From: a virus
DNA length: 64,000 nucleotides
Direction: 5' to 3' (one strand)
Virus record (IMG/VR): IMGVR_UViG_3300029940_000031
Shown: positions 10,278 through 55,072 of the stretch, piece by piece
How the letters are laid out: the number at the start of each line of letters is the position of its first letter
Numbering within the stretch: the stretch's first letter is position 1
Made by a program: the position numbers and the translations under genes
The notes under the pieces: generated by a model
The model's input: the letters and a program-made list of their open reading frames with translations, nothing else
Told to the model about the DNA's origin: nothing
Databases searched by the model: none

Positions 10278-10688
10278 ATGGCAGACACAGTAACAGTAAC
10301 TTTCGAGCACGCATTGAGAGCAATAAAAGAAAACCTAGAGGTAGGAAGAGGTTACAAGCAAAAGGATATTCGAGAAGTGTTAGAGAAGAACTTTCCGAAT
10401 ATTAACCCTAATCAGATCTCTGGTCTTATGACTCGCTTTATCAATAAATCGCTTTTCGATGTAAAGAGAGAAATAGGACATCGTAATACTTACGTCTTTA
10501 CAGGTGGGAAAGAGATGGCTGGTTTAGGAAATAATGGAATCACAGTGAGAGACTATGTGAAACATACGCTTCAAACGAGTATCGCAAGCCTAAAGACGAT
10601 ATCATTTGGGGATATCAAAAGTGCGGAAGACTTCAACTTACTGAAAAATACGGAAGAGAAGTTGCAGGAGATGTTAAAGGAACTGTAA
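10278..10688 (+). CDS. Small protein, possibly winged-helix DNA-binding (function unknown)
   Basis: RBS AGGAGGA; 136 aa; sits behind the palindromes; the wHTH assignment is only an impression. Confidence 0.6.
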   Translation: MADTVTVTFEHALRAIKENLEVGRGYKQKDIREVLEKNFPNINPNQISGLMTRFINKSLFDVKREIGHRNTYVFTGGKEMAGLGNNGITVRDYVKHTLQTSIASLKTISFGDIKSAEDFNLLKNTEEKLQEMLKEL

Positions 10689-10832
10689 GGCAGAGGTGCA
10701 TCCTCAACTTTTTCTTGCTACCCCCAGTGGTAGTAGTTGAAGGAAATCAGAAGCAAATCATTCGAGGTATTTACATTATGATTTGGAAAACGAAAAGATG
10801 CGACTTAAAACAAAAACTAGGGGGAAAATAGA

Positions 10833-11852
10833 ATGGGGCATGAAATAAACTATTGGATTTCAGAAATGAATAAGCAAGGGATTCCAAATCAACATATTGA
10901 ATTGATGAAAAATAGGGTTCTACAGGGAGAGTCCGAGTATCGTTTGTATTATGATGAAGTAGGCAAGGATACCAAACCGACTCTTGTTAAAGTTAGTAGG
11001 ATTAAAGGGATTAATACAGGATGGTGTACAGAAAACAGAGCAGTTTATGAATTATTTTTTTCTGCTACTGGTGAAATTACAACGAGTGTGCAAAATTTAA
11101 ATACTTTTCGTATTGAAGCAAACCTTAATTCGCTTATAGAGTTAGGCCGGGAAGAACAAAATGAATTTTATGCAAACGCTAAAGAAACCCATTTGAGGGA
11201 CGGTCTTCCTAATTTTAACTATTATCAAAATGATGAAATTTACTTTTCAGATGCGACGCATAGGACAGTCAGCGCTATAATGTTTGATGCTCCGAAGATG
11301 ATGGGATATGTTACTAACTATAGGAAGAATAGTGATAAATACAATAATTATTTAGTACATAAAAATTCTATGCAGAAATGGGAACAGCTAAATGCGGATT
11401 TTAAGTGCATTAATATAATTCGTATGGACAAAGATACGTATGATATATTGAATGGTAAAAAAGACGAGTATAAAATTCAATTGAAAGAGTTTCCTAATAA
11501 ACAGTTGTATTTCCGTTTTGATACACCTATTGTTGAAGTTAATAATCAAAATATGATAGATACAAAGAGAATTGAAGAAGAAAGAGACAGTATAGATGCT
11601 TTAATTCAAAAGTTACAACAAATAGATGATTATTTATTTGCAAATTCAAAAAAACTAGGGAAATTACCGTTATCATTACGTTTAATGAAGAAAATGAATT
11701 TCAACTTGGGATATTTCCTTTTCTATGAGTTATATAAAAAAGAAGTGTATTTGGATATAGATGATCCATCTGATGTTATAGGGTGGAAAATACAAAAGAG
11801 GATTCTTAACGATGTGATGGTTGACAATCAGCCGAAGAAACGGTGGACTTAG
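10833..11852 (+). CDS. 339-aa protein of unknown function with a possible ParB/Srx-like DxxHR motif
   Basis: RBS GGGGGAAA; EIYFSDATHRTVSAIMF resembles the DGxHRxxA core of ParB-like nuclease domains (weak). Confidence 0.65.
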   Translation: MGHEINYWISEMNKQGIPNQHIELMKNRVLQGESEYRLYYDEVGKDTKPTLVKVSRIKGINTGWCTENRAVYELFFSATGEITTSVQNLNTFRIEANLNSLIELGREEQNEFYANAKETHLRDGLPNFNYYQNDEIYFSDATHRTVSAIMFDAPKMMGYVTNYRKNSDKYNNYLVHKNSMQKWEQLNADFKCINIIRMDKDTYDILNGKKDEYKIQLKEFPNKQLYFRFDTPIVEVNNQNMIDTKRIEEERDSIDALIQKLQQIDDYLFANSKKLGKLPLSLRLMKKMNFNLGYFLFYELYKKEVYLDIDDPSDVIGWKIQKRILNDVMVDNQPKKRWT

Positions 11853-11894
11853 TGTTGTTATTATCTTAAAAAATACATTCATTTTTGATAATGC

Positions 11895-12075
11895 AATGGA
11901 ACTTTATTGCCGTTCTTGTTCCATGCTAGGGCTCAAATGTTTTGACACAGCTATATCCATTCTTTCTGGGGTAGAACCCATGCATATGATTAAAAAAGAA
12001 CAGCTTGATTTACGGGACCAGTCTGTCCAAAATCAGAAAGAATTCATCCATCAATTGTTTGAACTTGCACCATAA
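11895..12075 (+). pseudogene. IS6-family (IS240/IS257-like) transposase C-terminal remnant
   Basis: ...FDTAISILSGVEPMHMIKKEQL...IHQLFELAP* resembles the conserved IS6 transposase C-terminus; no N-terminal or DDE part; followed by an IS6-type terminal repeat. Confidence 0.6.
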
Positions 12076-12138
12076 GATACGATTCCGTTAGAGATATATG
12101 CGCTTTATTCTCTTTTATTTTATTTTTGCACCAGGACC
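11957..12138 (+). repeat. Tandem duplication unit 1 of the IS6 right end (ends in the IR ...TTTTTGCACCAGGACC)
   Basis: About 180 bp, highly similar to 12140-12316; reverse complement of the end is GGTCCTGGTGCAAAAA (compare IS257 GGTTCTGTTGCAAA). Confidence 0.7.
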
Positions 12139-12139
12139 T

Positions 12140-12316
12140 CCATTCTTACAGGAGTGGAAGCTATGCATATGATTAAAAAAGAGCAGCTTGATTTACGGGA
12201 TCAGTCTGCTCAAAATCAGGAAGAATTCATCCATCGATTGTTTGGGCTTGCAGCATAAGATACGATTCCGGTAGGAATATATGCGCCTTATTCTCTTTTA
12301 TTTTTGCACCAGAACC
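12140..12316 (+). repeat. Tandem duplication unit 2 of the IS6 right end
   Basis: Encodes ...EAMHMIKKEQLDLRDQSAQNQEEFIHRLFGLAA*, then the IR TTTTTGCACCAGAACC. Confidence 0.7.
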
Positions 12317-12319
12317 TTA

Positions 12320-12583
12320 TTACTCATTGTGCTGTTTGTATCTACGTCTTTCCAATTCTAACGCCTCTTCTTCTGTTAAATCCTTAAACAATTCTCTATA
12401 TCCTACATTGAACATGTCTTCAAGTTCCATCATTTTATCTGGTCTAGGATGTTTTTTGCCATTCTCCCAATTACTTACAGTAGTGTGGTTAACATCTAAA
12501 CGATCCGCTAAAGTATAAATAGTAAATCCTGCATCCATGCGATATTTTCTAAGCCTCTTTGGAAGTTTCTTATTTTTTTCCAT
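12320..12583 (-). CDS. XRE-family HTH protein
   Basis: AGAGGA-N8-ATG (M4 of the track ORF); FTIYTLADRLDVNHTTVSNWENGKKHP is a classic XRE HTH. Confidence 0.8.
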   Translation of the reverse strand: MEKNKKLPKRLRKYRMDAGFTIYTLADRLDVNHTTVSNWENGKKHPRPDKMMELEDMFNVGYRELFKDLTEEEALELERRRYKQHNE

Positions 12584-12702
12584 TAATATCATCCTCTTTA
12601 TCTAAATTATAGAATTTACCTAAACTTCTTTTGTAATAAATTAACCTTAACAAGGATAGATTTCCCATCATAATTGACAATTGTATGTTCCATATTTTTA
12701 CC

Positions 12703-13611
12703 TCACTGTTGATAAATCTCGTACTTTACCTGCGTCTCCTTCTCTAATTCTTGCTCATCAACACTTTCCTTTTCTAAGTCTTCTAATAAGAAATCTAATT
12801 CTACAATTGTAGATAGTGCATTAAACAATCTTAGGGCATCTACTTGCTTCCAATTAATTGGATAGTCACGCCCATGTAATACCCAATCTCGATTTATAAT
12901 TGGTAAACGATTTGAACGCTTATCAAAGTTGCCAGCTTTAAATACGCTATTTAAAAACTCTGCTACCGAAACATAAAATATTATATAGGTTCTATCAGTT
13001 TCTATTTCTTGTTGTACTTGTTTATATTGATTTCTTAATGCTGGCTTTCTTTCTCGTTTCTTTTTGTCAGGATTAATATATTTTTGAAACCTTGGTGTTA
13101 TAAGTATATGGGCAAGATTTTCAATTACAATGAATAAATTTGGAATTACAATTAAATAATTTCCCTTCTCATAGTTATCAAAACATTGTGCAAGAAGCTC
13201 TCTCCATTGCTCAATTAACCCATTTTCAAGTATCTGGGTCTTCATATTCTGATATTCTGTTCCACTTGAATAGAAAGTTTGAATTAATAAGTCCAACTTG
13301 TTTTGATCGTTGACTTCTGATAATTCACTTACTTCATGAAATGACATATGCATTGGAAAAGTCCATCCTTTTTGTCCCAACACCTCGGCTGCCTCTTTCT
13401 CTATTAGCCCAAAATCTCCCCAATCTATATTTCGCAAAGGTTCTAAGGATTTATTGATTGTCTCTCTTATATCGGCAACCAGTTCTGTAAAACCCTTAAG
13501 CACCTCTTGCGTACCCTTTGTTAATTCAAAAGCAGGGGTAGAATGATTTATTCCTTTATCCCGTTTGTCCAATTCTCCCATAACTTCCTTTTTCTTTGCT
13601 TCTATATCCAA
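12703..13611 (-). CDS. 302-aa protein with a C-terminal Rx4H (HEPN-like) motif
   Basis: NRDWVLHGRD = R241-x4-H246 followed by G, as in several HEPN families; TTG start after GGGAGA (start uncertain; ATG at 13581 is the alternative). Confidence 0.6.
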   Translation of the reverse strand: MDIEAKKKEVMGELDKRDKGINHSTPAFELTKGTQEVLKGFTELVADIRETINKSLEPLRNIDWGDFGLIEKEAAEVLGQKGWTFPMHMSFHEVSELSEVNDQNKLDLLIQTFYSSGTEYQNMKTQILENGLIEQWRELLAQCFDNYEKGNYLIVIPNLFIVIENLAHILITPRFQKYINPDKKKRERKPALRNQYKQVQQEIETDRTYIIFYVSVAEFLNSVFKAGNFDKRSNRLPIINRDWVLHGRDYPINWKQVDALRLFNALSTIVELDFLLEDLEKESVDEQELEKETQVKYEIYQQ

Positions 13612-13685
13612 TTTAGTTTTCTCCCATCTTTATAGAATTCTTAGTGTTTTCTAGTTTTATAAAAGAGAAGATAACGAGCCTTCTC

Positions 13686-13976
13686 TTAATCTTTTATTCT
13701 TGTAAGGTCGTCAATATTTATCCTAATCAGTCTTTCAAAATTCTCGTCTACTGCACATATCTCTTCAACTGTGTATATCCCAAAAATCTCTTGAAGTGAA
13801 CATATGTCATATTTAATATTGAATCTTATTAAGTTAGGGCTACTTCCATGCTTCACTTCTAATCAATCCATCTCTGCCTCTTCTTTGCTTGCAAACAATT
13901 TTTGAATTTCAATTTCTCCTTCTCGTTTGACTTCAATATTCCCGTATAAATGATAAAAATTTTTATATTTTTTCAT
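13686..13976 (-). pseudogene. 96-codon ORF interrupted by one in-frame TGA (or two mini-ORFs)
   Basis: RBS AAAGGGGA-N8-ATG at 13976; frame stays open to TAA 13688-13686 except for TGA at 13865-13863. Confidence 0.4.
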
Positions 13977-14018
13977 AGCTATATTCCCCTTTTTGATTAT
14001 TTTTATAAAATATAGTTT

Positions 14019-14459
14019 TTACTGATCATCACGTCTGTATCTTGGTTTAAGAACACATTGCAACACACCTTCTAAGGCTAATCGTCTATGATACCCTGTA
14101 CAAACAGTCCAGTATATTCTAATCCGACCTTGGATTGATTTGAAAAAAAGTATTCGTCTTGTCTGTTTGTTATCATATAGTTTTTCAATATGGCTGTGTA
14201 ATCGTCCTTGAATCCAACCTTCACCTACATATAATATTTCTTCAGTTATTAAATCAACAAACACATATACCCCTCTTTTATCATTAGATACAAATTCTTT
14301 TACTTTGTTTTTGAGCTCTAGACCTTTTCGAAGTTGATCCTCTTCGTTATATTTATATTCCAGAATAAAGTTAGACCACCCTTTAGGTATAAGCGGGAGT
14401 ATGGAATTCTCTAAAAGAAATTGTTCTAAGTTATTATCGAAATATCCATTATATATCAT
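14019..14459 (-). CDS. GIY-YIG-like small nuclease-fold protein
   Basis: KRGVYVFVD...EILYVGEG...GRLHSH...LALEGV fits the order GIY...YIG...R...E. Confidence 0.6.
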   Translation of the reverse strand: MIYNGYFDNNLEQFLLENSILPLIPKGWSNFILEYKYNEEDQLRKGLELKNKVKEFVSNDKRGVYVFVDLITEEILYVGEGWIQGRLHSHIEKLYDNKQTRRILFFKSIQGRIRIYWTVCTGYHRRLALEGVLQCVLKPRYRRDDQ

Positions 14460-14575: not shown

Positions 14576-14998
14576 CACAAATAGTAATATCCACAGATTT
14601 TAATTTTGAAAATTATGTGAATTAACAAAACAGAACGGTTTATCATTTTTTTCTCCTAAAAAATCTATTTAGTTATTTCGTATAAATAACTTTAAATTAA
14701 CACTTACATCATAATAAATTAGTCAATATATAAATGTAAGTGAATAGAGAAGAAAAATGCACTATTGCATATTCTTATCCGTAAAGCGTAAAAAGCACTG
14801 ATATAAAGCTATTTTCAAATTTTCTCAATATTTTTCTGATAACCACAAGACTGAATTTTGGCAAAAATATGATATTATGAAAATAATAAAATAAACGGAA
14901 CGAAAAAAAGACTCACAGCGTGTGTAAGTAGTGTTCGCATCACTCTTATACCGTTCGCCCGACTCACCAGGGGAACATCTGCCATAAGTCTCTTTTCG

Positions 14999-15015
14999 GT
15001 TACTTCATGAGTAAC
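14999..15015. promoter_or_regulatory. Possible fourth GTTAC-N7-GTAAC operator, upstream of the aimR-like gene
   Basis: GTTACTTCATGAGTAAC has the same arms and spacing as the three operators of the CI/Cro region. Confidence 0.4.
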
Positions 15016-15125
15016 AATTACATTATAACATGCCGATATTACTAAAGCATTACTGTGGTATGAACTTCCTGTTTATAATTTGAGGAAAATAGCGAAGCGT
15101 CTTTGTTCCAAAAGGAGCAAATTTG

Positions 15126-16352
15126 ATGGATCATACACTTATACAAAAAAAAGAAGAGTTCAAAAGAAAAGCATTAATGAATTTCTTAAGTAGCATTATC
15201 GATGAAATTGATTTTCAAAGAAGGAATCAAGAAGACATCGCAAAAGAATTAGGTATTTCAGGAGGGGCACTCTCGAAAAACTTATCAGGTAAAAGTCAAT
15301 TTAATTTTTGGAATATGATTAAGTTACTTAATATCTTGTACGATGACAATGTCTTAAAGAAAAAAGAGATGATGCATAAGTTTTGCTCAGTTACAAAGAG
15401 CAAACAAAACTTGAGAATTGCTATGGAATATGCAAATTCAACAGGTGACTTAGAATTATTAAAATTAATTGTAGATATAGAAAAAACGTCATCGTTGGCT
15501 ATGAATAGAGAGTGGGCTTATGTATACGAATTGGTATGGATGCGAAGTAAAGGTGTCGTTAGTGGTAAAAACTTATTAGAGAAATTAGAAGATCGTAAGA
15601 AAAGTAAGGTAATTAGGACACAAGAAATGAAGGTTTTATACGGAATACTAACTTTTTATACGATGTATGATTTAGAGAAATTCAATTCATTGTTCGAATA
15701 CGCTGAAGTATTATTGCCTAAAGTCGAAGAAATTCAAGATGCTTTTATTAGAACAGCATATGCGGGTAGAATTAAAGAAGGCTTATCTTACGCCTATTTA
15801 ATGCAAGATAATGTTTATAGATCAAGAGAATTGTGTCATGAAATTATGCATTTAAAAGATGATAAAAATTGTTTTTCTCTTTTAAGGGTGTCAGCTTTGG
15901 TATACCTTGCAGAGTCTTATACATTCGAAAGTTACGAAAGAGCTTCTTGGTACATCAATAAATCGTTAGAAATGTTAGGTACATGCCATTTTGAGAGAGC
16001 GATTAAAAGAAAAGAAAATGTTATGAATACCTTTGCTTTTATTAAGCTTGTTTATAATAAAGAACTCGAGGAAATCGAAATATATAACGTATGCGAAGAA
16101 GCTTTTTATCAAGTGTTAATCGGTCATTCTGATGTGGCGGTAAAACTTTTAAAGGAAACTGAAAGAAAAGATGGGAAGTTGAGTCCTATGAAAAAATGCA
16201 TATTAGGATATGCGTTGAAAGACATTGATTTATTAAAAGAATCATTAGTAGATTTCGAGTGTGCAGGTAATAGGTTTTATAGCAAATTACCTAGAAAAAT
16301 GTTGGTAGAATTTTATAAAATTGGTATAATATATGAGGGTGATGCTAAATGA
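15126..16352 (+). CDS. aimR: AimR-like (RRNPP-type) peptide receptor and transcription regulator
   Basis: AAGGAG-N8-ATG; N-terminal HTH QEDIAKELGISGGALSKNLSG, then ~340 aa of helical TPR-like repeats; its stop overlaps (ATGA) a signal-peptide mini-ORF; sits next to the CI/Cro switch. Confidence 0.7.
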   Translation: MDHTLIQKKEEFKRKALMNFLSSIIDEIDFQRRNQEDIAKELGISGGALSKNLSGKSQFNFWNMIKLLNILYDDNVLKKKEMMHKFCSVTKSKQNLRIAMEYANSTGDLELLKLIVDIEKTSSLAMNREWAYVYELVWMRSKGVVSGKNLLEKLEDRKKSKVIRTQEMKVLYGILTFYTMYDLEKFNSLFEYAEVLLPKVEEIQDAFIRTAYAGRIKEGLSYAYLMQDNVYRSRELCHEIMHLKDDKNCFSLLRVSALVYLAESYTFESYERASWYINKSLEMLGTCHFERAIKRKENVMNTFAFIKLVYNKELEEIEIYNVCEEAFYQVLIGHSDVAVKLLKETERKDGKLSPMKKCILGYALKDIDLLKESLVDFECAGNRFYSKLPRKMLVEFYKIGIIYEGDAK

Positions 16353-16507
16353 AAAAATTATTAACTTTAGTAGTGACATTTGCTTTAGTTGGAGTACTAT
16401 ATATATCTCCTGCTAAAGAGCATAAAGAACAATCAGTACAAACAGCGAAGGTTTTTCAAGAAAATACGTATAGAATGATGGTTGATCCTGGAGGTGGAAT
16501 GGGATAA
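16349..16507 (+). CDS. aimP: AimP-like secreted pro-peptide (52 aa), below the ORF-track cutoff
   Basis: MKKLLTLVVTFALVGVLYISPAKEHKEQSVQTAKVFQENTYRMMVDPGGGMG*; Sec-type signal followed by a hydrophilic pro-region; frame checked codon by codon. Confidence 0.65.
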   Translation: MKKLLTLVVTFALVGVLYISPAKEHKEQSVQTAKVFQENTYRMMVDPGGGMG

Positions 16508-16585
16508 TATCCTATTCTATCAAGGATGTAATATAAATACTTAGAATGCGATTGTCTCAAATGAGGCAATCGCATTCGCTGTTTT
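16507..16585 (+). promoter_or_regulatory. Inverted repeat plus strong hairpin downstream of aimP (candidate AimR operator and terminator)
   Basis: ATATCCT-N9-AGGATGT (16507-16529); 11-bp stem GCGATTGTCTC-AAAT-GAGGCAATCGC (16548-16573), then TGTTTTT. Confidence 0.5.
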
Positions 16586-16674
16586 TAGAGGGATTTCCTA
16601 AATATCGGATTCTATATTCGAGAAAATATTGTGAATCGTTCACAAATTACATAGATAAACTGGGGGTTTTAGGG

Positions 16675-16806
16675 ATGAAAAAAGAAAGCTTAGCTGAGGT
16701 ATTATGGAAGACACTTGTAATGGGAGAAACCACAAGTGATGAGAGCAAAAAACAAGAAGTTTCTAATATAGAGTTACTTATTATGAATAAAAAGAATGAT
16801 TGTTAG
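16675..16806 (+). CDS. 43-aa ORF at the aimX position (MKKESLAEVLWK...)
   Basis: GGGGG-N8-ATG; the first 43 codons of the track ORF 16546..16806 run through the hairpin and are unlikely to be coding. Confidence 0.4.
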   Translation: MKKESLAEVLWKTLVMGETTSDESKKQEVSNIELLIMNKKNDC

Positions 16807-16824
16807 CATTTTGCTGACAATCAT

Positions 16825-17160
16825 TTAATCATCTGAACCAAGGGCTGCCTGCATCATTTTATAAAGCATCTCTTGTTCGTGTTTAGGTTTTTGTTCTAGT
16901 TTTTCAAGTAAAACGTCAAACTTCTTTCGTAGGTCAGAGTATTGTTCATTACTTAAATGTGGATCGTCAGATAGCCCTAACAAATAATCAGTAGTTACAT
17001 TTAGTACCTTAGATAATTTAGTTACAGACTCTCTAGATGGAGTTTTTTTATTACCTTCGAATCTTGAGATAGAAGCTTTAGTTAAATTAGTTAGTTCAGC
17101 TAATTCTTGCTGGGTTAAGTTTTTCTCTATCCTTAATTGTTTTAATCTCTCATTAAACAT
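16825..17160 (-). CDS. CI-like repressor (XRE HTH)
   Basis: RBS GGGAGGAAA; LKQLRIEKNLTQQELAELTNLTKASISRFEGNKK; divergent from a Cro-like gene. Confidence 0.85.
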   Translation of the reverse strand: MFNERLKQLRIEKNLTQQELAELTNLTKASISRFEGNKKTPSRESVTKLSKVLNVTTDYLLGLSDDPHLSNEQYSDLRKKFDVLLEKLEQKPKHEQEMLYKMMQAALGSDD

Positions 17161-17186: not shown

Positions 17187-17204
17187 GTTACCCGTAGGGT
17201 CAAC
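17187..17204. promoter_or_regulatory. Operator O1
   Basis: GTTACCCGTAGGGTCAAC, 27 nt upstream of the repressor start. Confidence 0.65.
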
Positions 17205-17345: not shown

Positions 17346-17362
17346 GTTGTCCTTAGGGTAAC
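17346..17362. promoter_or_regulatory. Operator O2 overlapping the Cro promoter
   Basis: GTTGTCCTTAGGGTAAC; TTGTCC (-35-like) lies 17 nt before TATAAT at 17370-17375. Confidence 0.65.
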
Positions 17363-17401
17363 TTTTGTATATAATAAAAATTGTAAACGAGGTGATCATA
17401 A

Positions 17402-17611
17402 ATGAAAGTTAACCATCAATTACTTTTAAGACTCCGCCGTAAACATAATATGACACAACGAGAACTTGGCGAACGACTTAATAAGGCTAAAGAAACGATC
17501 TCTAGATATGAAAATGGAGTGAAGAATCCTAGCTTACAAACTTTATGTTCTTATGCAGAAGTTTTTGGTGTAACAATAGACGAATTAATGGAAAAGAAAT
17601 TGAAAGTCTAA
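17402..17611 (+). CDS. Cro-like XRE HTH protein
   Basis: RBS GAGGTGA; LRRKHNMTQRELGERLNKAKETISRYENG. Confidence 0.85.
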   Translation: MKVNHQLLLRLRRKHNMTQRELGERLNKAKETISRYENGVKNPSLQTLCSYAEVFGVTIDELMEKKLKV

Positions 17612-17626
17612 TTTTTTTAACTATAA

Positions 17627-17643
17627 GTTACCTTCAGGGTAAC
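17627..17643. promoter_or_regulatory. Operator O3 (perfect palindrome)
   Basis: GTTACC-TTCAG-GGTAAC, 16 nt after the cro stop. Confidence 0.6.
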
Positions 17644-19213: not shown

Positions 19214-19846
19214 ATGATAACTGAAAATTACTTTTCTAAATTGGCTCAAATAGATTGTTCGGGACATGTTGAGAAGAAAGGGCGTTTTAATTACTTATCG
19301 TGGGCATGGGCAGTTAAAAAGCTTCGTGAAGTAGATCCAACAGCCACATGGGAAGTAAAACGATTTGATGGAGTGCCTTACCTCAAAACAGATTGTGGTT
19401 ACTTTGTAGAAGTTGAAGTAACTGTACAAGGAATACCACTAAGTCAAATTCACCCGATACTTAACAATCAAAACAAGCCGATTGCAGAGCCTAACAGCTT
19501 TGACATTAACACAAGTATCCAACGTTGCTTAGTAAAGGCAATTGCACTTCACGGATTAGGATTGTACATCTATGCAGGTGAAGATTTACCAGAGATCCAA
19601 GAGGAAATGATTACTGCTCAACAAGTTGGTGCAATTAAATTAAACATAAAAAAATTAGCTACCCTTCGAAAAGTGGATGAAGACACGATTAAAGGATACT
19701 TAGGTATTAAAGAGGTTGGCGAATTGACATTAAAACAAGCTGGAGAAGTACTTAAGAAATTAACAAAGTGGGTTAAACAGGCTGAAAAAGAAACTTCTGA
19801 AACTGAAGAGCAAGAACAAGTAGAAAAAATAGAACAAACAAACTAA
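19214..19846 (+). CDS. Rad52-like single-strand annealing protein (Sak/DUF1071 type)
   Basis: RFNYLSWAWAVKKL and ALHGLGLYIYAGEDLP are typical of the DUF1071/Sak family; early-region position. Confidence 0.7.
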   Translation: MITENYFSKLAQIDCSGHVEKKGRFNYLSWAWAVKKLREVDPTATWEVKRFDGVPYLKTDCGYFVEVEVTVQGIPLSQIHPILNNQNKPIAEPNSFDINTSIQRCLVKAIALHGLGLYIYAGEDLPEIQEEMITAQQVGAIKLNIKKLATLRKVDEDTIKGYLGIKEVGELTLKQAGEVLKKLTKWVKQAEKETSETEEQEQVEKIEQTN

Positions 19847-50099: not shown

Positions 50100-51470
50100 T
50101 TACTTATTTGGTACTTTTCGTACATCTGAAATCCATTCTAAAGGCCAGTTTTGTGGAAGTAAAACTTGATCTCCACCACCTTTCAACGTAGTCCCGCTCA
50201 TTGTGTATTGTTCAGCTACTTTTCCAAGATTAAGAGTTTCGCCTTCCGGAACTTTAATCGTAGCCTCATACATTCTACTATTTTTCCATTCCGGTAAAAG
50301 AGCTGTATCTAGTTTCGCTTGTATTCGATTTTGAGCGGGGACAGTTGTAGCGAAACCACCGCCTGCATCAGCACTATGCCCAAATGTACGATATAATGTT
50401 ACCTCTTCATTAGTTTTTACAGTTCTAAATACTCCATCTGTAAATGAATCTCCAATCCAAGGTGGTAAATTCGCTTTTTCTATTTCAGTTACTTGATGAT
50501 CGATACTTGTAGCATATTTTTTTATGTCTGAGGCACGATCAGCTTTTTTAATAGTATTAGCAGCTTCAACTGCATTCGCAGTCATTTTTACCCCTTTGCC
50601 AACTTTGGCAATTTTTCCGACTGGTGTAAGACCAGCTACAGCCATTCCTCCAGCAAAAACCCTTTCCCAAGTGGAAAGTTTTTCGCCAGTAGATGGATCG
50701 ATACCGTCCCAAGCACGACGAACATCGTATTCACCACTTATTTCACCAGCAATATCTCTAGCTAATTTTTTACCATCAAATCCTTTTTCCTCCGAAGAAA
50801 GTTTACCACACATTGCACCTTCTTCGATTGATTTATCAGCCTGACGCTTCCTATCTTCTTCAATCGCTTGAATAGAAGTAGTCCACTCCATATTCAACAC
50901 TTGCGTACTAAATGTTCCGCTTGCAGGACTAAATCCTTTGCCACTTTGCACTTCCGCAAGACCTTGTGCGATACTCGCAGCTAGTTGAAGTGCTGTAGCA
51001 TAGTTATTGCTAGACGCTTGATTAAATTCATATAGGTGATTTAACTTTTCTTGAAGTTTGTGTCTCATGACAGTAAAAAGATTCGCCATAGCGTCCATAC
51101 TTGGCATCGGCATAGCTTGACTGATAGCTTCCATACTTGCCTTCATTCGGTCAATTTCTCGAATTTGTTCTAATATTTCTTGTTCAATTACATCAGTTGA
51201 AGCGACCTGTGATTGAAATTGACTTGGAAAGGCATCATTCTGATGAATTAGTTCTTCACACAAGTAAATAATCCCTTGGGCTAAGGGACGGAAGGTTTGT
51301 ACAAAAAATGCTTTGGCACTACTATATGTTTGTCCTTGTAGAACAGTATCAATTGCAAAAGCATCAATCGACTGAATAACTTGTTCCATACCTTGAATGG
51401 TAGCGGTACATACAGCATTCATATCTTGTGTTTGTGTATGCACTTCCCCTAAATACATATTTAAACTCAA
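50100..51470 (-). CDS. LXG-domain polymorphic toxin (T7SSb substrate type) with a TNT/NADase-like C-terminal domain
   Basis: N-terminus IDAFAIDTVLQGQTYSSAKAFF (LxG); C-terminus LYRTFG...GGGFATT...ALLPEW...GKVAEQ...LKGGGDQVLLP resembles the TNT-type pattern (tentative). Confidence 0.7.
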   Translation of the reverse strand: MSLNMYLGEVHTQTQDMNAVCTATIQGMEQVIQSIDAFAIDTVLQGQTYSSAKAFFVQTFRPLAQGIIYLCEELIHQNDAFPSQFQSQVASTDVIEQEILEQIREIDRMKASMEAISQAMPMPSMDAMANLFTVMRHKLQEKLNHLYEFNQASSNNYATALQLAASIAQGLAEVQSGKGFSPASGTFSTQVLNMEWTTSIQAIEEDRKRQADKSIEEGAMCGKLSSEEKGFDGKKLARDIAGEISGEYDVRRAWDGIDPSTGEKLSTWERVFAGGMAVAGLTPVGKIAKVGKGVKMTANAVEAANTIKKADRASDIKKYATSIDHQVTEIEKANLPPWIGDSFTDGVFRTVKTNEEVTLYRTFGHSADAGGGFATTVPAQNRIQAKLDTALLPEWKNSRMYEATIKVPEGETLNLGKVAEQYTMSGTTLKGGGDQVLLPQNWPLEWISDVRKVPNK

Positions 51471-51539: not shown

Positions 51540-51881
51540 TTATTTAGCATCAATAATATCAATAAATTTCAACGTTATTTTATTATAAAATGCATCCGTA
51601 CAAATTATAGATTTATTCAACGGATCAATATCAATGACGGTCATATAGCTAGTAAGTAAAAATCCATCTTCATAATATGTAATCAATATTTCTTCTTCAG
51701 AAAGCAGCGAACATAATAGTGTATTCTCAATAAGTTCTTGTTCATCCTGGGTTAATGTAGGGCGTTCTACTTTTGTCTTGTTTTTAATAATCTCACAGAT
51801 ACCTACGAATTGTTCTGGCATCGCTGCGAATGGAGTCCATTTAACCATTCCTCTTCCTTTTGGCATATTAGCGTTGTTCAT
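51540..51881 (-). CDS. yolD: YolD-like protein
   Basis: MPKGRGMVKWTPFAAMPEQF motif; overlaps the polymerase stop. Confidence 0.8.
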   Translation of the reverse strand: MNNANMPKGRGMVKWTPFAAMPEQFVGICEIIKNKTKVERPTLTQDEQELIENTLLCSLLSEEEILITYYEDGFLLTSYMTVIDIDPLNKSIICTDAFYNKITLKFIDIIDAK

Positions 51882-53143
51882 GATTTATGTCCCCCTAACA
51901 ATGTGTTTCTGTATCTTGCTGTTGCACTATTTGTATACGAAATTCCTCTTAATATGCTGTTCTTACCAAATTTAGTGCGTATTTCGTCCATTACTTTCGT
52001 TAGTTTCATTTCTTTTTCTCGTTGTATTACATTATAGAATAGTGAGATTTGTTCTTCGCCTTCATGGATTAAGTTAGTTAAAGAAACATTTATGGATCTA
52101 ATGGGCTCCCCAGTGTAAAACTTGTGTAAAAAATATGTACAAATCTTATATATATCCATTGTTAAATTGGTCGGTCGGTTCATAGTGTGAGTTTTTCTGA
52201 AGCCACCAGAGTAATTTCTGCTATAACCAATGGAAAAATGAACAGTTTGAGCTAGTTTGTTTTGCCTTCGCATTCGATAACAAACTTCTTCTATATGCTC
52301 CAGTAGAATAATTGGAAACTCTTCTATGGTGTAATCGCGCATAAGTATTTGGCTTTTACCAATAGAAGTTGTTGCTGGAACATATTTTTCTGATATACGG
52401 CTAAAATCTATGCCGTTGCTATGTAAGTGCAATTCTTCGCCAATGACCCCGAAGCTTTGTTTTAAGTATTTAAGTGGGTATTGCGCTAAGTCTCCGATTG
52501 AATGAATTCCTTTTCGGTTTAACTTCGCTTCTGTTTTACCCGAAATCCCCCAAAACTTACTAAGTGGTTGTATTGGCCATAATTTTATGGGTACATTTTC
52601 GTACTTCCAGTATGCTATGCAATCTTTCGTTTTCTTCGCTTCTACATCTAAGGCAACCTTGCTCATTAAAGGGTTTGGACCAATTCCTATCGTGCATTCA
52701 ATTCGCGTCTTAGCATATATCTCTCGTTTGAATTTCAATGCAAATTCATATGGATCATTAGCAAATAAATGAATACTATCCGTAATGTCCATAAAGAACT
52801 CATCGATGGAATATTGGTGAAAATCCTCAATTGGCACGTATTGTAGGGCCAACTTAGTAATGAAATTAGAACATTTTATGTAAGTACTCATAATTGGATT
52901 TATCACAAGGATATCTTTACGACGTGGTATCTCATACAATCTCGCCATTTTCTTAACGCCTAATGCTTTTAATGGTGGAGTTGCAGCCAAAACAATTGAA
53001 CCACTCCTATTCACATCACCAACTACAGCCAATTTAGTATGAAGTGGGTCTAATCCCATTTTGATGCACGATACACTGGCATAGAACGAACGAAGATCTA
53101 CACATAAAACAATTCGATTTGGCAATATTGAATAGTCATACAC
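51878..53143 (-). CDS. Y-family (UmuC/UvrX-like) translesion DNA polymerase
   Basis: VLCVDLRSFYASVSC... N-terminal motif; 421 aa; GTG after GGGGG. Confidence 0.85.
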   Translation of the reverse strand: MYDYSILPNRIVLCVDLRSFYASVSCIKMGLDPLHTKLAVVGDVNRSGSIVLAATPPLKALGVKKMARLYEIPRRKDILVINPIMSTYIKCSNFITKLALQYVPIEDFHQYSIDEFFMDITDSIHLFANDPYEFALKFKREIYAKTRIECTIGIGPNPLMSKVALDVEAKKTKDCIAYWKYENVPIKLWPIQPLSKFWGISGKTEAKLNRKGIHSIGDLAQYPLKYLKQSFGVIGEELHLHSNGIDFSRISEKYVPATTSIGKSQILMRDYTIEEFPIILLEHIEEVCYRMRRQNKLAQTVHFSIGYSRNYSGGFRKTHTMNRPTNLTMDIYKICTYFLHKFYTGEPIRSINVSLTNLIHEGEEQISLFYNVIQREKEMKLTKVMDEIRTKFGKNSILRGISYTNSATARYRNTLLGGHKS

Positions 53144-53163
53144 CGTTATTCCCCCTAAATAAC

Positions 53164-53200
53164 AGAACGTTAGTTCTTATTATATACGAATGTATGTTCT
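53164..53200 (-). promoter_or_regulatory. Two LexA (Cheo) boxes flanking a TATAAT -10 element
   Basis: AGAACGTTAGTTCT (53164-77) and CGAATGTATGTTCT (53187-200) match GAAC-N4-GTTC; minus-strand TATAAT at 53184-53179. Confidence 0.75.
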
Positions 53201-53776: not shown

Positions 53777-55072
53777 GTGATATTTGAGTTAGTTAGTTCA
53801 GCTGCTGTCGGTGGTGTAGTCTTTCTATCAAAAATGCATCAAAAAGGAGCAACAAATGATGCATCCAAGATTCAAAGGATCTGCGCGAACTGCGGATTAA
53901 AAGTAAAAGAAGGGAAAGAGACTAGGACTATACAGCTGCTTCGCAAAACGAGGAATAATTGGGGAGTTGAATATGCGTATAGAATACCGCTTGGTCTTAG
54001 CTTCTCCGATTTCGAACAAAAAATACAACATTTAGAGGATGGATTAAATCACAAGAGCAAGGTTTATGATTTCAAACTACAAGACTTCAAATCTCTTCGA
54101 CTGCGAAAAGATATCTTAAAACAAATACAAAACATCATAAATAAGAAAAAACTCGTTAGAAAGGAAATTGAGCTGTCTTACGATGGTTTATTAAAAATAC
54201 GCGTTTATGAGAAAGGAATACCTAATTTCGTTAAATTTGTAGAGGATATGATGAGGCAATGTAGAGGTTGGGAGGTTCCGATTGGTTATACGAGGGATGG
54301 ATTGATAAAACATGATTTTGATCAACTAGCGCACATGATATCAGCCGGCATGACGGATATGGGTAAATCAAATGTATTAAAACTTATAATTACATCCCTG
54401 GTACGCAACCAACCAGAAAATACAAAGCTATTCCTTATAGATTTGAAGGGTGGTCTCTCTTTTAACCGTTACAGATTCTTAAACCAGGTCGAATCAATTG
54501 CGAAGAATCCAGAGGAAGCCCTAGAGACTCTAAGGGAATTGCAAGATAAACTGAATGCTAGAAACGAATACTTACTAGAAAAAGGATACGAAGATATAAA
54601 AGAAGCTGGGGATCCAGTACGTTACTTTGTAATTGTTGATGAAGCAGCCGACATAGCGCCATATCAGGAGTGCAGGGACATCATTGTTGATATAGGGCGT
54701 CGTGGCAGGGCAGCGGGATTTCGCTTGGTGTATGCGACACAGTACCCAACAAACGAAGCGTTACCATCGCAGCTACGACAAAACATTGGCGCTCGTGTTT
54801 GTTTTAGATTACAGACAGAGGCAGGGAGCCGTGCTGTACTTGATGAGGGCGGCGCAGAAATGCTTCCTAACATAAAGGGGAGAGCGATATACCAAACAAA
54901 TGAGAAGAAGGTCCTACAGACGGTTTATATCGATAATAAGCAAATAGATAACATCATAAAGCCACACATTAACATCAGAGCGAGGAAGGAGCATGAAGAT
55001 GCAAAAACTAGCCATGAAGGAAGCGAGAACGGAAAGTATACTCTTGAGCTTGAAGAAACTCGGCTTTCTTAG
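53777..55072 (+). CDS. FtsK/SpoIIIE-family DNA translocase
   Basis: N-terminal TM; Walker A GMTDMGKSN; Walker B YFVIVDEAAD. Confidence 0.85.
   Translation: MIFELVSSAAVGGVVFLSKMHQKGATNDASKIQRICANCGLKVKEGKETRTIQLLRKTRNNWGVEYAYRIPLGLSFSDFEQKIQHLEDGLNHKSKVYDFKLQDFKSLRLRKDILKQIQNIINKKKLVRKEIELSYDGLLKIRVYEKGIPNFVKFVEDMMRQCRGWEVPIGYTRDGLIKHDFDQLAHMISAGMTDMGKSNVLKLIITSLVRNQPENTKLFLIDLKGGLSFNRYRFLNQVESIAKNPEEALETLRELQDKLNARNEYLLEKGYEDIKEAGDPVRYFVIVDEAADIAPYQECRDIIVDIGRRGRAAGFRLVYATQYPTNEALPSQLRQNIGARVCFRLQTEAGSRAVLDEGGAEMLPNIKGRAIYQTNEKKVLQTVYIDNKQIDNIIKPHINIRARKEHEDAKTSHEGSENGKYTLELEETRLS

Follow-up and report, generated by a model that had tools for sequence, protein, structure and literature searches.

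An extended arbitrium module with a candidate antisense RNA in a Bacillus cereus-group phage-plasmid

The window analysed here, a stretch of 64,000 nucleotides of viral DNA (IMG/VR record IMGVR_UViG_3300029940_000031), is a phage-plasmid with a complete siphovirus-like genome. We find that it very probably carries an intact "extended arbitrium" lysis-lysogeny module of the B. cereus-group type, in which a secreted peptide, its receptor AimR, the small protein AimX and the repressor AimC would act in the full chain of events set out below. The genes lie in the order aimR-aimP-aimX-aimC (reverse)-aimL, and all five open reading frames (ORFs) are full length:

15126-16352, plus strand: aimR, arbitrium peptide receptor of 408 amino acids (aa), a helix-turn-helix (HTH) domain followed by a TPR-like solenoid (Pfam, PHROG, fold)
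16349-16507, plus strand: aimP, 52-aa pre-pro-peptide with the predicted signal MMVDPGGGMG (ATGA overlap, phrog_2682, alignment)
16675-16806, plus strand: aimX, 43-aa ORF, predicted AimC antirepressor (phrog_12565, E = 4e-23; GGGGG Shine-Dalgarno sequence 8 nt upstream)
16825-17160, minus strand: aimC, 111-aa single-HTH repressor (HTH_3, E = 2e-15)
17402-17611, plus strand: aimL, 69-aa Cro-like HTH protein (HTH_3, E = 8e-18)

There are strong homologues for every one of these proteins, which places the module far beyond chance. In the present analysis it is supported by homology, fold, gene order, conservation footprints and the co-variation of AimX with AimC; peptide processing, DNA binding and antirepression are proposed by analogy with published relatives. 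The order aimR, aimP, small ORF, reverse HTH gene and forward HTH gene is shared by Waukesha92 and PfNC7401, proteins identical to AimP, AimX, AimC and AimL are encoded on 24-46 public contigs, and the exact module was found on a 70-kb contig at NCBI; B. cereus assembly GCA_042940155.1 is one example of a carrier of the element. An initial annotation, made by a model from the letters of the sequence, had proposed an arbitrium module consisting of AimR and AimP with a mini-ORF in the aimX position, adjoining a CI/Cro-like switch, and both the sequence and the predicted fold bear this out. Indeed, the ORFs, the ATGA overlap, the hairpin and the palindromes that it described are all present at their positions in the ORF list and the raw sequence, and its CI-like gene (here aimC) and Cro-like gene (here aimL) both encode HTH_3 proteins by Pfam.

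The module is already annotated and its architecture has been described, and therefore there is no novelty in the module itself. It belongs to a known, catalogued type, and with it one more peptide variant (predicted MMVDPGGGMG) joins a family of which thousands of members are already catalogued; the one part that could be new is an antisense RNA candidate located in the leader of aimR. Arbitrium was reportedly described in the SPbeta/phi3T phages by Erez et al. in 2017 and Gallego del Sol et al. in 2019, and extended-type systems in B. cereus-group phages are said to have been described by Stokar-Avihail in 2019. Extended arbitrium is defined by an AimC of 80-140 aa without an autocleavage domain, an AimX of 29-80 aa and the small HTH protein AimL, and ~75% of roughly 9,300 AimR loci have this architecture (Kabel et al., bioRxiv 10.1101/2025.11.23.689978). 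The idea in the initial annotation that the output of the switch may be new does not hold, since the aimX-aimC-aimL output is the one published there.

In the proposed chain of events, aimR and aimP would be carried on one transcript and their translation would be coupled. The signal peptide of AimP would direct its export, and extracellular trimming would leave a C-terminal peptide, most likely MMVDPGGGMG; once re-imported, this peptide would bind to the TPR-like domain of AimR. Without peptide, AimR would bind the DNA between the aimP terminator and aimX, with a dyad at 16594-16625 as the best candidate site, and in the DNA-bound form would activate transcription of aimX. The 43-aa AimX would then bind AimC and keep it off operators of the GTTACC-N5-GGTAAC type, and the promoter of the Cro-like aimL together with the early lytic/replication operon would be switched on. 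When the peptide is abundant, AimR would be inactive and AimX would not be made, AimC would repress, and the element would stay, or become, a prophage.

Receptor and signal peptide

The receptor ORF (15123-16352, plus strand) encodes 409 aa from a TTG start or 408 aa from the ATG at 15126; at NCBI, the 408-aa form has a 100% identical counterpart under the name "AimR family lysis-lysogeny pheromone receptor". It matches Pfam family PF22871 over 305 of the 309 model positions (E = 1.2e-40; 140 bits, with a cut-off of 26.7) and phrog_1728 with E = 2e-129. About 120 AimR relatives at 46-89% identity also carry PF22871, and a clade profile built from 38 of them matched the solved AimR chains of SPbeta, phi3T, Katmira33 and ATCC13952 with E values of 3e-18 to 6e-15 over ~345 of 407 positions. 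These matches came with the clade profile; a single-sequence phmmer search of AimR against the PDB returned nothing relevant, and a scan of genome contigs with AimR returned one relative only.

The AlphaFold model of AimR is all-helical (mean pLDDT 91.8, pTM 0.88). In a Foldseek search of this model against the PDB, the best 16 matches were all AimR (E values of 8e-11 to 4e-8), with TM scores of 0.72-0.78 in full-length alignments with solved AimR structures, whereas PlcR, Rap and NprR appeared only with E values of at least 1.7e-3 and TM scores of 0.33-0.47. The Pfam scan of AimR likewise gave no match to the PlcR, NprR or Rap families. Compared with AimR, NprR, PlcR and Rap, as the initial annotation had recommended, the receptor groups with AimR by both profile and fold, and not with the non-phage RRNPP regulators.

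The SPbeta/phi3T systems share with the window the AimR fold (TM score about 0.75), an aimP directly downstream and a long dyad operator past aimP, and in them peptide-free AimR activates aimX, as proposed here. However, their AimR is only ~18-20% identical, their signal is a hexapeptide of the form xxxxGA compared with a predicted xxxDPGGGxx of ~10 residues in the window, and SPbeta-type systems are without the adjacent aimC/aimL pair. AimX of the SPbeta type also works in a different way, through MazF/YosL or as RNA (PMC10769878).

The TGA stop of aimR overlaps the ATG of aimP in an ATGA (16349-16352). AimP, whose sequence is exactly as quoted in the initial annotation, begins with MKK and a 16-residue hydrophobic stretch ending in SPA, which by eye has the appearance of a signal peptide, and continues into a hydrophilic, charged pro-region. 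The claim that this 52-aa ORF is unannotated is not generally correct: it matches phrog_2682 (E = 6e-21), and an identical "hypothetical protein" is found at NCBI on 27 contigs. A tblastn search of AimP against phages gave a single weak match only.

AimP aligns with the AimP proteins of pFORC087.3 (83% identity, with the last 19 residues identical), PfNC7401 (...YMEVGPGGGMG) and Waukesha92 (...MMSEPGGGGW), and P47, G48, G49 and G50 are invariant among them. MMSEPGGGGW is the peptide of the Waukesha92-like group and is active at 1 uM (review PMC11945551), and by alignment with it the mature signal of the window is most likely MMVDPGGGMG. Among the AimP variants of a panel of loci retrieved through a shared leader DNA pattern, the RMMVDPGGGMG tail recurs in at least five other loci (L001, L005, L025, L029 and L039). 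Similar tails have been reported from phage B83 (...MADPGGSVG, clade 7; PMC6669507) and RBClin15 (...RMMVDPGGGGW, clade 9; PMC11526630), and the ...MMVDPGGGMG tail is a member of the known xxxDPGGGxx class found in B. cereus-group arbitrium clades. The difference of the peptide code from the xxxxGA hexapeptides, to which the initial annotation drew attention, is real, but the code is not new.

Output genes and their control regions

The following elements lie between aimP and the region just past aimL:

16507-16529, unstranded: inverted repeat ATATCCT-N9-AGGATGT from the initial annotation, arms complementary at 6 of 7 positions, 9-nt spacer
16544-16587, plus strand: intrinsic terminator after aimP, with a 15-bp stem, a 4-nt loop and a T-run (terminator scan, inverted repeat I1)
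16594-16625, unstranded: 32-bp imperfect dyad TTTCCnAAATATCnnATTnnATATnnnnGAAA, best candidate AimR operator (invariant blocks in 7/7 clade members)
16630-16644, unstranded: palindrome TGTGAA-N3-TTCACA, overlapping the -35-like TTGTGA of a candidate aimX promoter
16795-16825, unstranded: 14-bp hairpin between the convergent aimX and aimC (inverted repeat I12, 93% complementary)
17187-17203, unstranded: AimC operator-like site GTTACCCGTAGGGTCAA beside the aimC promoter (at most two mismatches to GTTACC-N5-GGTAAC)
17346-17375, plus strand: candidate aimL promoter TTGTCC-17-TATAAT with the operator-like site GTTGTCCTTAGGGTAAC (promoter scan, motif search)
17627-17643, unstranded: perfect operator-like palindrome GTTACCTTCAGGGTAAC just past aimL (motif search)

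The 43-aa ORF that had been placed in the aimX position is present and belongs to phrog_12565, and an identical protein is encoded on 24 contigs. Its predicted function as an antirepressor is assigned by analogy with Kabel et al. 2025, where AimC represses the aimL promoter and the small AimX protein is an antirepressor that blocks AimC oligomerisation and DNA binding (bioRxiv 10.1101/2025.11.23.689978). aimC is convergent with aimX on the opposite strand, and its 111 aa fit the reported 80-140 aa; the Pfam scan of AimC gave HTH_3 alone, with no S24 peptidase or autocleavage domain. Over its HTH, AimC matches 9IAQ (E = 2e-4), the PDB code of a structure deposited by Kabel et al. (bioRxiv 10.1101/2025.11.23.689978). 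On the minus strand, a T-run comes directly after the hairpin at 16795-16825, which is therefore taken as the aimC terminator. aimL is divergent from aimC, identical AimL proteins occur on 31 contigs, and a gene for a Sak-type single-strand annealing protein lies downstream of aimL at 19214-19846.

The partnership of AimX and AimC was examined through pairwise protein identities among 21 distinct modules. The identities of AimR and AimP go together (Spearman 0.70), and AimX identity follows that of AimC (Spearman 0.53) and not that of AimR (0.10). Where two AimC proteins are at least 70% identical, their AimX proteins are at least 50% identical in 16/16 pairs, compared with none of the 175 pairs in which AimC identity is below 50%. 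Furthermore, the RMMVDPGGGMG sensing unit is paired with at least three AimX-AimC cassettes, those of the window, of the pFORC087.3 type and of locus L005. The co-variation supports a partnership at the protein level and an independent shuffling of sensing and output units, and such shuffling of AimR-AimP and AimX-AimC-AimL backs the antirepressor model from sequence data alone. One further module (L023, compared with L001 and L033) has an AimX of the L033 type together with an AimC whose N-terminus resembles that of the pFORC087.3 type; this AimC may be a chimera, combining the HTH of one lineage with the AimX-binding C-terminus of another.

AimR of pFORC087.3 (B. cereus FORC087) is 88.8% identical to that of the window and AimR of PfNC7401/PfIS075 is 75.5% identical, and in both the terminator, the dyad and the palindrome are the same as in the window, but their AimX-AimC-AimL cassettes differ, with AimC 37% and 24% identical, respectively. 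DNA similarity between the window and pFORC087.3 ends at ~16653, between the palindrome and aimX. The Waukesha92-like/Wbeta/BMBtp14 systems have the same gene order, similar gene sizes, an AimP tail with PGGG, a terminator after aimP with TGTGAA-N3-TTCACA behind it, and the same conserved leader upstream of aimR. The head and tail genes of Waukesha92 are 87% identical to those of the window; its AimR is ~29% identical, its AimX 16% and its AimC 24%. A DNA-level search with aimX-aimC-aimL in phages gave no relatives.

Sites matching GTTACC-N5-GGTAAC with at most two mismatches occur four times in the 64 kb (1.35 expected; 2/100 shuffles reach four), and all four lie within 2.7 kb, at 14999-15015, 17187-17203, 17346-17362 and 17627-17643. 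The site at 17346-17362 overlaps the -35 of the best aimL promoter. Two relatives have their own motifs at the corresponding places, including after aimL: unlike the window, pFORC087.3 has TTGACCTTAGGTCAA (TTGACC-TTA-GGTCAA) and Waukesha92 has GGTCTC-N5-GAGACC. The operator copy after aimL hints at repressor looping or tetramer binding.

Between aimP and aimX, the initial annotation had singled out a hairpin (16548-16573) and an inverted repeat (16507-16529). The hairpin is present, as the core of the 15-bp stem 16544-16577, which is followed by GCTGTTTTTA and scored as an intrinsic terminator; it is thus part of the aimP terminator. This terminator is invariant in the AimR clade of the window, and other clades have a different stem sequence in the same place. 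The inverted repeat exists, but it is short, below the list of the repeat finder, and is not conserved. Its segment is absent from PfNC7401, pAW63, pXO2, p97 and pYGD83 and is degenerate in pFORC087.3; because it is missing from 5/7 AimR clade members, it is unlikely to be the AimR operator, and it is probably not functional.

A better candidate is the dyad at 16594-16625, in which TTTC and GAAA stand 24 bp apart. Its invariant blocks are present even in conjugative plasmids without aimX and aimC: a block of ~125 bp comprising the terminator, the dyad and the TGTGAA palindrome is common to the window and to pAW63, pXO2, p97 and pYGD83, after which the similarity ends. Other AimR clades have long dyads of their own in this place, TTCGAAGT-N16-ACTTCGAA in Waukesha92 and TAAAACTTTT-N13-AAAAGTTTTA in the QYMMTDPGGL clade. 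On the basis of its conservation throughout the clade and of these other dyads, we propose 16594-16625, with moderate confidence, as a candidate AimR operator. Its architecture resembles that of the SPbeta and phi3T AimR operators, in which two 6-bp boxes in inverted orientation stand 25 bp apart downstream of aimP (PMC6458997).

The neighbouring palindrome TGTGAA-N3-TTCACA occurs a single time in the window (0.06 expected); four AimR clades have kept it, as has the pXO2/pAW63 family. The four clades have similar HTH recognition helices, and in two clades with a different helix the palindrome is absent. Rex/Fnr/CRP-type sites have the consensus TGTGA-N6-TCACA, and a reading of the palindrome as such a site was not adopted, its spacing being one base shorter. 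Footprinting across phage-plasmids and pXO2/pAW63-type plasmids yields in this way both a concrete AimR operator candidate and the TGTGAA-N3-TTCACA element.

Several observations weigh against the proposed chain of events. The only perfect 6-bp inverted repeats with a 15-32 bp spacer in the intergenic region of the window are the terminator arms and a non-conserved ATTCTA-N22-TAGAAT, and since there is no conserved repeat of the SPbeta style, the assignment of the AimR operator draws on the conservation footprint only. The candidate aimX promoter has a weak -10 (TAGATA), and a search for LexA boxes in the module, including upstream of aimX, gave none, which leaves a DNA-damage input unexplained. 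The length of the mature AimP peptide is deduced from one aligned relative. Finally, the peptide effect reported for Wbeta and Waukesha92-like phages is lysis or induction, not lysogeny (reviews PMC9917116 and PMC11945551), and this pro-lytic direction is in conflict with the model of Kabel et al.

The output of AimR could also be an RNA, the aimX transcript reading through the weak hairpin at 16795-16825 and acting against aimC by antisense pairing or transcriptional interference. aimX and aimC are convergent and 18 bp apart, the intervening hairpin has its T-run on the minus strand only, so that read-through into aimC on the plus strand is plausible, and this was the earlier model for B. cereus-group arbitrium, as cited by Kabel et al. 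(bioRxiv 10.1101/2025.11.23.689978). Membership of the 43-aa ORF in a conserved small-protein family, its Shine-Dalgarno sequence and the co-variation of the AimX protein sequence with AimC argue instead for a protein product. Indeed, recoded and start-to-stop aimX alleles of phi106/phiW23 showed that the protein is needed and not the transcript, and induction of AimX with IPTG lifted the repression by AimC in constructs from Waukesha92, Wbeta and BMBtp14 (bioRxiv 10.1101/2025.11.23.689978). We consider an RNA output unlikely and favour AimX as a protein antirepressor.

Two other readings concern the module as a whole. The receptor could be a non-phage RRNPP regulator of the PlcR/NprR/Rap type that serves host or plasmid functions and not the lysis-lysogeny decision. 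Members of the same AimR clade (65-72% identity) do adjoin repS on pXO2/pAW63-type plasmids, where they have the same terminator-dyad-palindrome region and AimP tails of ...MGDPGSGMG and ...MVGPGGGMG but, unlike the window, no downstream aimX, aimC or aimL; phage decisions are therefore not the sole setting of this clade. Membership in the PlcR, NprR or Rap families is nevertheless already refuted by sequence and fold, and the AimR of the window sits inside the aimX-aimC-aimL switch of a complete siphovirus-like genome; we find this reading barely credible. Alternatively, the module could be a decayed or silent remnant without control over the element, as is apparently the case in the sister plasmid pBCA2, which is the same as the window to about 14899 and then has a different cassette annotated with two AimR fragments. 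In the window, by contrast, the five ORFs are full length and identical on many contigs, and the promoters, terminator and operators are conserved, which makes a remnant very unlikely.

The aimR leader and a candidate antisense RNA

The aimR leader may encode an undescribed structured antisense RNA with its own promoter that would pair with the aimR leader, in a block that would also be a boundary for cassette swapping; we put this forward tentatively, as possible rather than probable. The elements concerned are:

14870-14878, plus strand: candidate distal aimR promoter, extended -10 TGATATTAT (TG-n-TATTAT conserved in 33 distinct relatives)
14903-15015, minus strand: candidate structured antisense small RNA of ~113 nt over the aimR leader (conservation, consensus fold, covariation)
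14999-15015, unstranded: palindrome GTTACTTCATGAGTAAC (GTTAC-N7-GTAAC, exact match), 5' hairpin of the RNA candidate
15022-15030, minus strand: candidate promoter of the antisense RNA, extended -10 TGTTATAAT (read directly from the sequence)
15102-15121, plus strand: hairpin UUUGUUCC-AAAA-GGAGCAAA predicted to sequester the aimR Shine-Dalgarno sequence (predicted leader fold)

The leader is conserved well beyond the receptor that it precedes. The first ~316 bp of a query sequence (14800-15115) had counterparts of 84-90% identity in many phages and plasmids, which carry no annotation there, and a 17-mer from the leader block retrieved 44 viral contigs. From ~14800 to the aimR ribosome-binding site the block is near-invariant in 33 distinct phage and plasmid sequences, and the AimR genes behind this shared leader fall into at least six clades that are mutually only 21-43% identical. 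The window is also nearly identical to the B. cereus plasmid pBCA2 (NZ_CP015728.1, L052; 70 kb, circular) over its left 14.8 kb, with four substitutions to ~14899. From ~14900 the identity is lost, and pBCA2 has a different arbitrium cassette instead (AimR in two fragments, a 51-aa AimP and a 116-aa AimC), and this cassette boundary coincides with the start of the conserved RNA element.

The RNA candidate would fold into a 5' hairpin and, after it, a three-way junction; the long stem closing this junction would serve as a terminator and has U7 behind it (14903-14909). Its consensus fold energy is -37.4 kcal/mol on the minus strand compared with -24.8 on the plus strand, and variable as well as several invariant leader positions form G.U pairs on the minus strand where the plus strand would have A.C mismatches. 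RNAalifold gives 39 pairs for the minus strand, with 99.2% of cells paired and five pairs with changes on both sides; these pairing values were reached by 0/500 shuffles, and slid controls were 40-54% paired. The candidate is also present in L001 and L003-L048. Two diverged copies, in pBCA2 (L052:6972-7085) and in the metagenomic viral contig L011 (L011:628-745, a core-only copy in a different gene context), have the same architecture, with z scores of -2.6 to -4.3.

The extended -10 at 15022-15030, 7 nt upstream of the 5' hairpin, is a candidate promoter for this RNA. Relatives with the shared leader, L011 excepted, all have the corresponding plus-strand block CATTATAACATG unchanged, and pBCA2 keeps it too; no good -35 is seen in the sequence. 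On the opposite strand, the promoter scan lists a site at 14858-14887 that overlaps the candidate distal aimR promoter. If aimR is transcribed from this promoter at 14870-14878, the ~113-nt RNA would be fully antisense to the aimR leader. Closer to the gene, the Shine-Dalgarno sequence of aimR (GGAG) is predicted to pair with an invariant upstream CUUUGUUCC in the hairpin at 15102-15121. The 5' arm of this hairpin is invariant, and its 3' arm is GGAGCAAA or GGAACAA between clades with the pairing kept, which suggests translational control of the receptor.

If correct, the antisense RNA and the hairpin that sequesters the Shine-Dalgarno sequence would bring the synthesis of both receptor and peptide under additional control at the RNA level in arbitrium phages of the B. 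cereus group; for phage communication in the B. anthracis/cereus/thuringiensis group, the RNA would be a new level of regulation. No credible match to a known RNA family was found with Rfam (at the gathering threshold over the whole window and at E <= 10 on 14600-15300) or ARAGORN, and a search of the literature turned up no paper that connects aimR to an RNA of this kind. A minus-strand 36-aa ORF (14875-14985) was considered as an explanation of the leader and rejected: in relatives the loops contain 1-nt indels, and the reading frame extends across the terminator.

The palindrome at 14999-15015, which has one other exact GTTAC-N7-GTAAC copy in the window (17627-17643), had been taken in the initial annotation as a sign of cross-talk with the CI repressor. 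The site is exact, but it is conserved irrespective of AimC type and operator, including in pFORC087.3 and Waukesha92, and because it is kept in relatives with unrelated AimC operators, cross-talk with AimC at this position is not supported. The palindrome is better explained as the RNA hairpin; its left arm is GTCAC in 11/26 relatives, with U.G pairing kept on the minus strand.

Phage-plasmid context

On the plasmids p97, pAW63, pYGD83 and pXO2 (L053-L056), which have the terminator-dyad-palindrome block without aimX and aimC, a LexA-box-like AGAACAAACGTTCT is located ~110 nt downstream, and the AimR copy of pXO2 was matched in two pieces. In the window itself, a gene for a Y-family (ImpB/UmuC-like) DNA polymerase (51878-53143, minus strand; 51878-53200 with its upstream sites) is preceded by two adjacent LexA-box-like sites, AGAACGTTAGTTCT (53164-53177) and CGAATGTATGTTCT (53187-53200), which are the only SOS-type signature seen in the window. 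Two regions beyond the phage structural genes, 50100-51470 and 53777-55072, code for a polymorphic-toxin-type protein of the LXG/PT-TG kind (minus strand) and an ATPase of the FtsK/SpoIIIE family, and represent cargo or plasmid functions. Four ORFs (10278-14459; 136, 339, 302 and 146 aa) with no Pfam or PADLOC match separate the plasmid backbone from the arbitrium module; since pFORC087.3 has a DUF4297 protein at the equivalent position, this region looks like a variable cargo slot.

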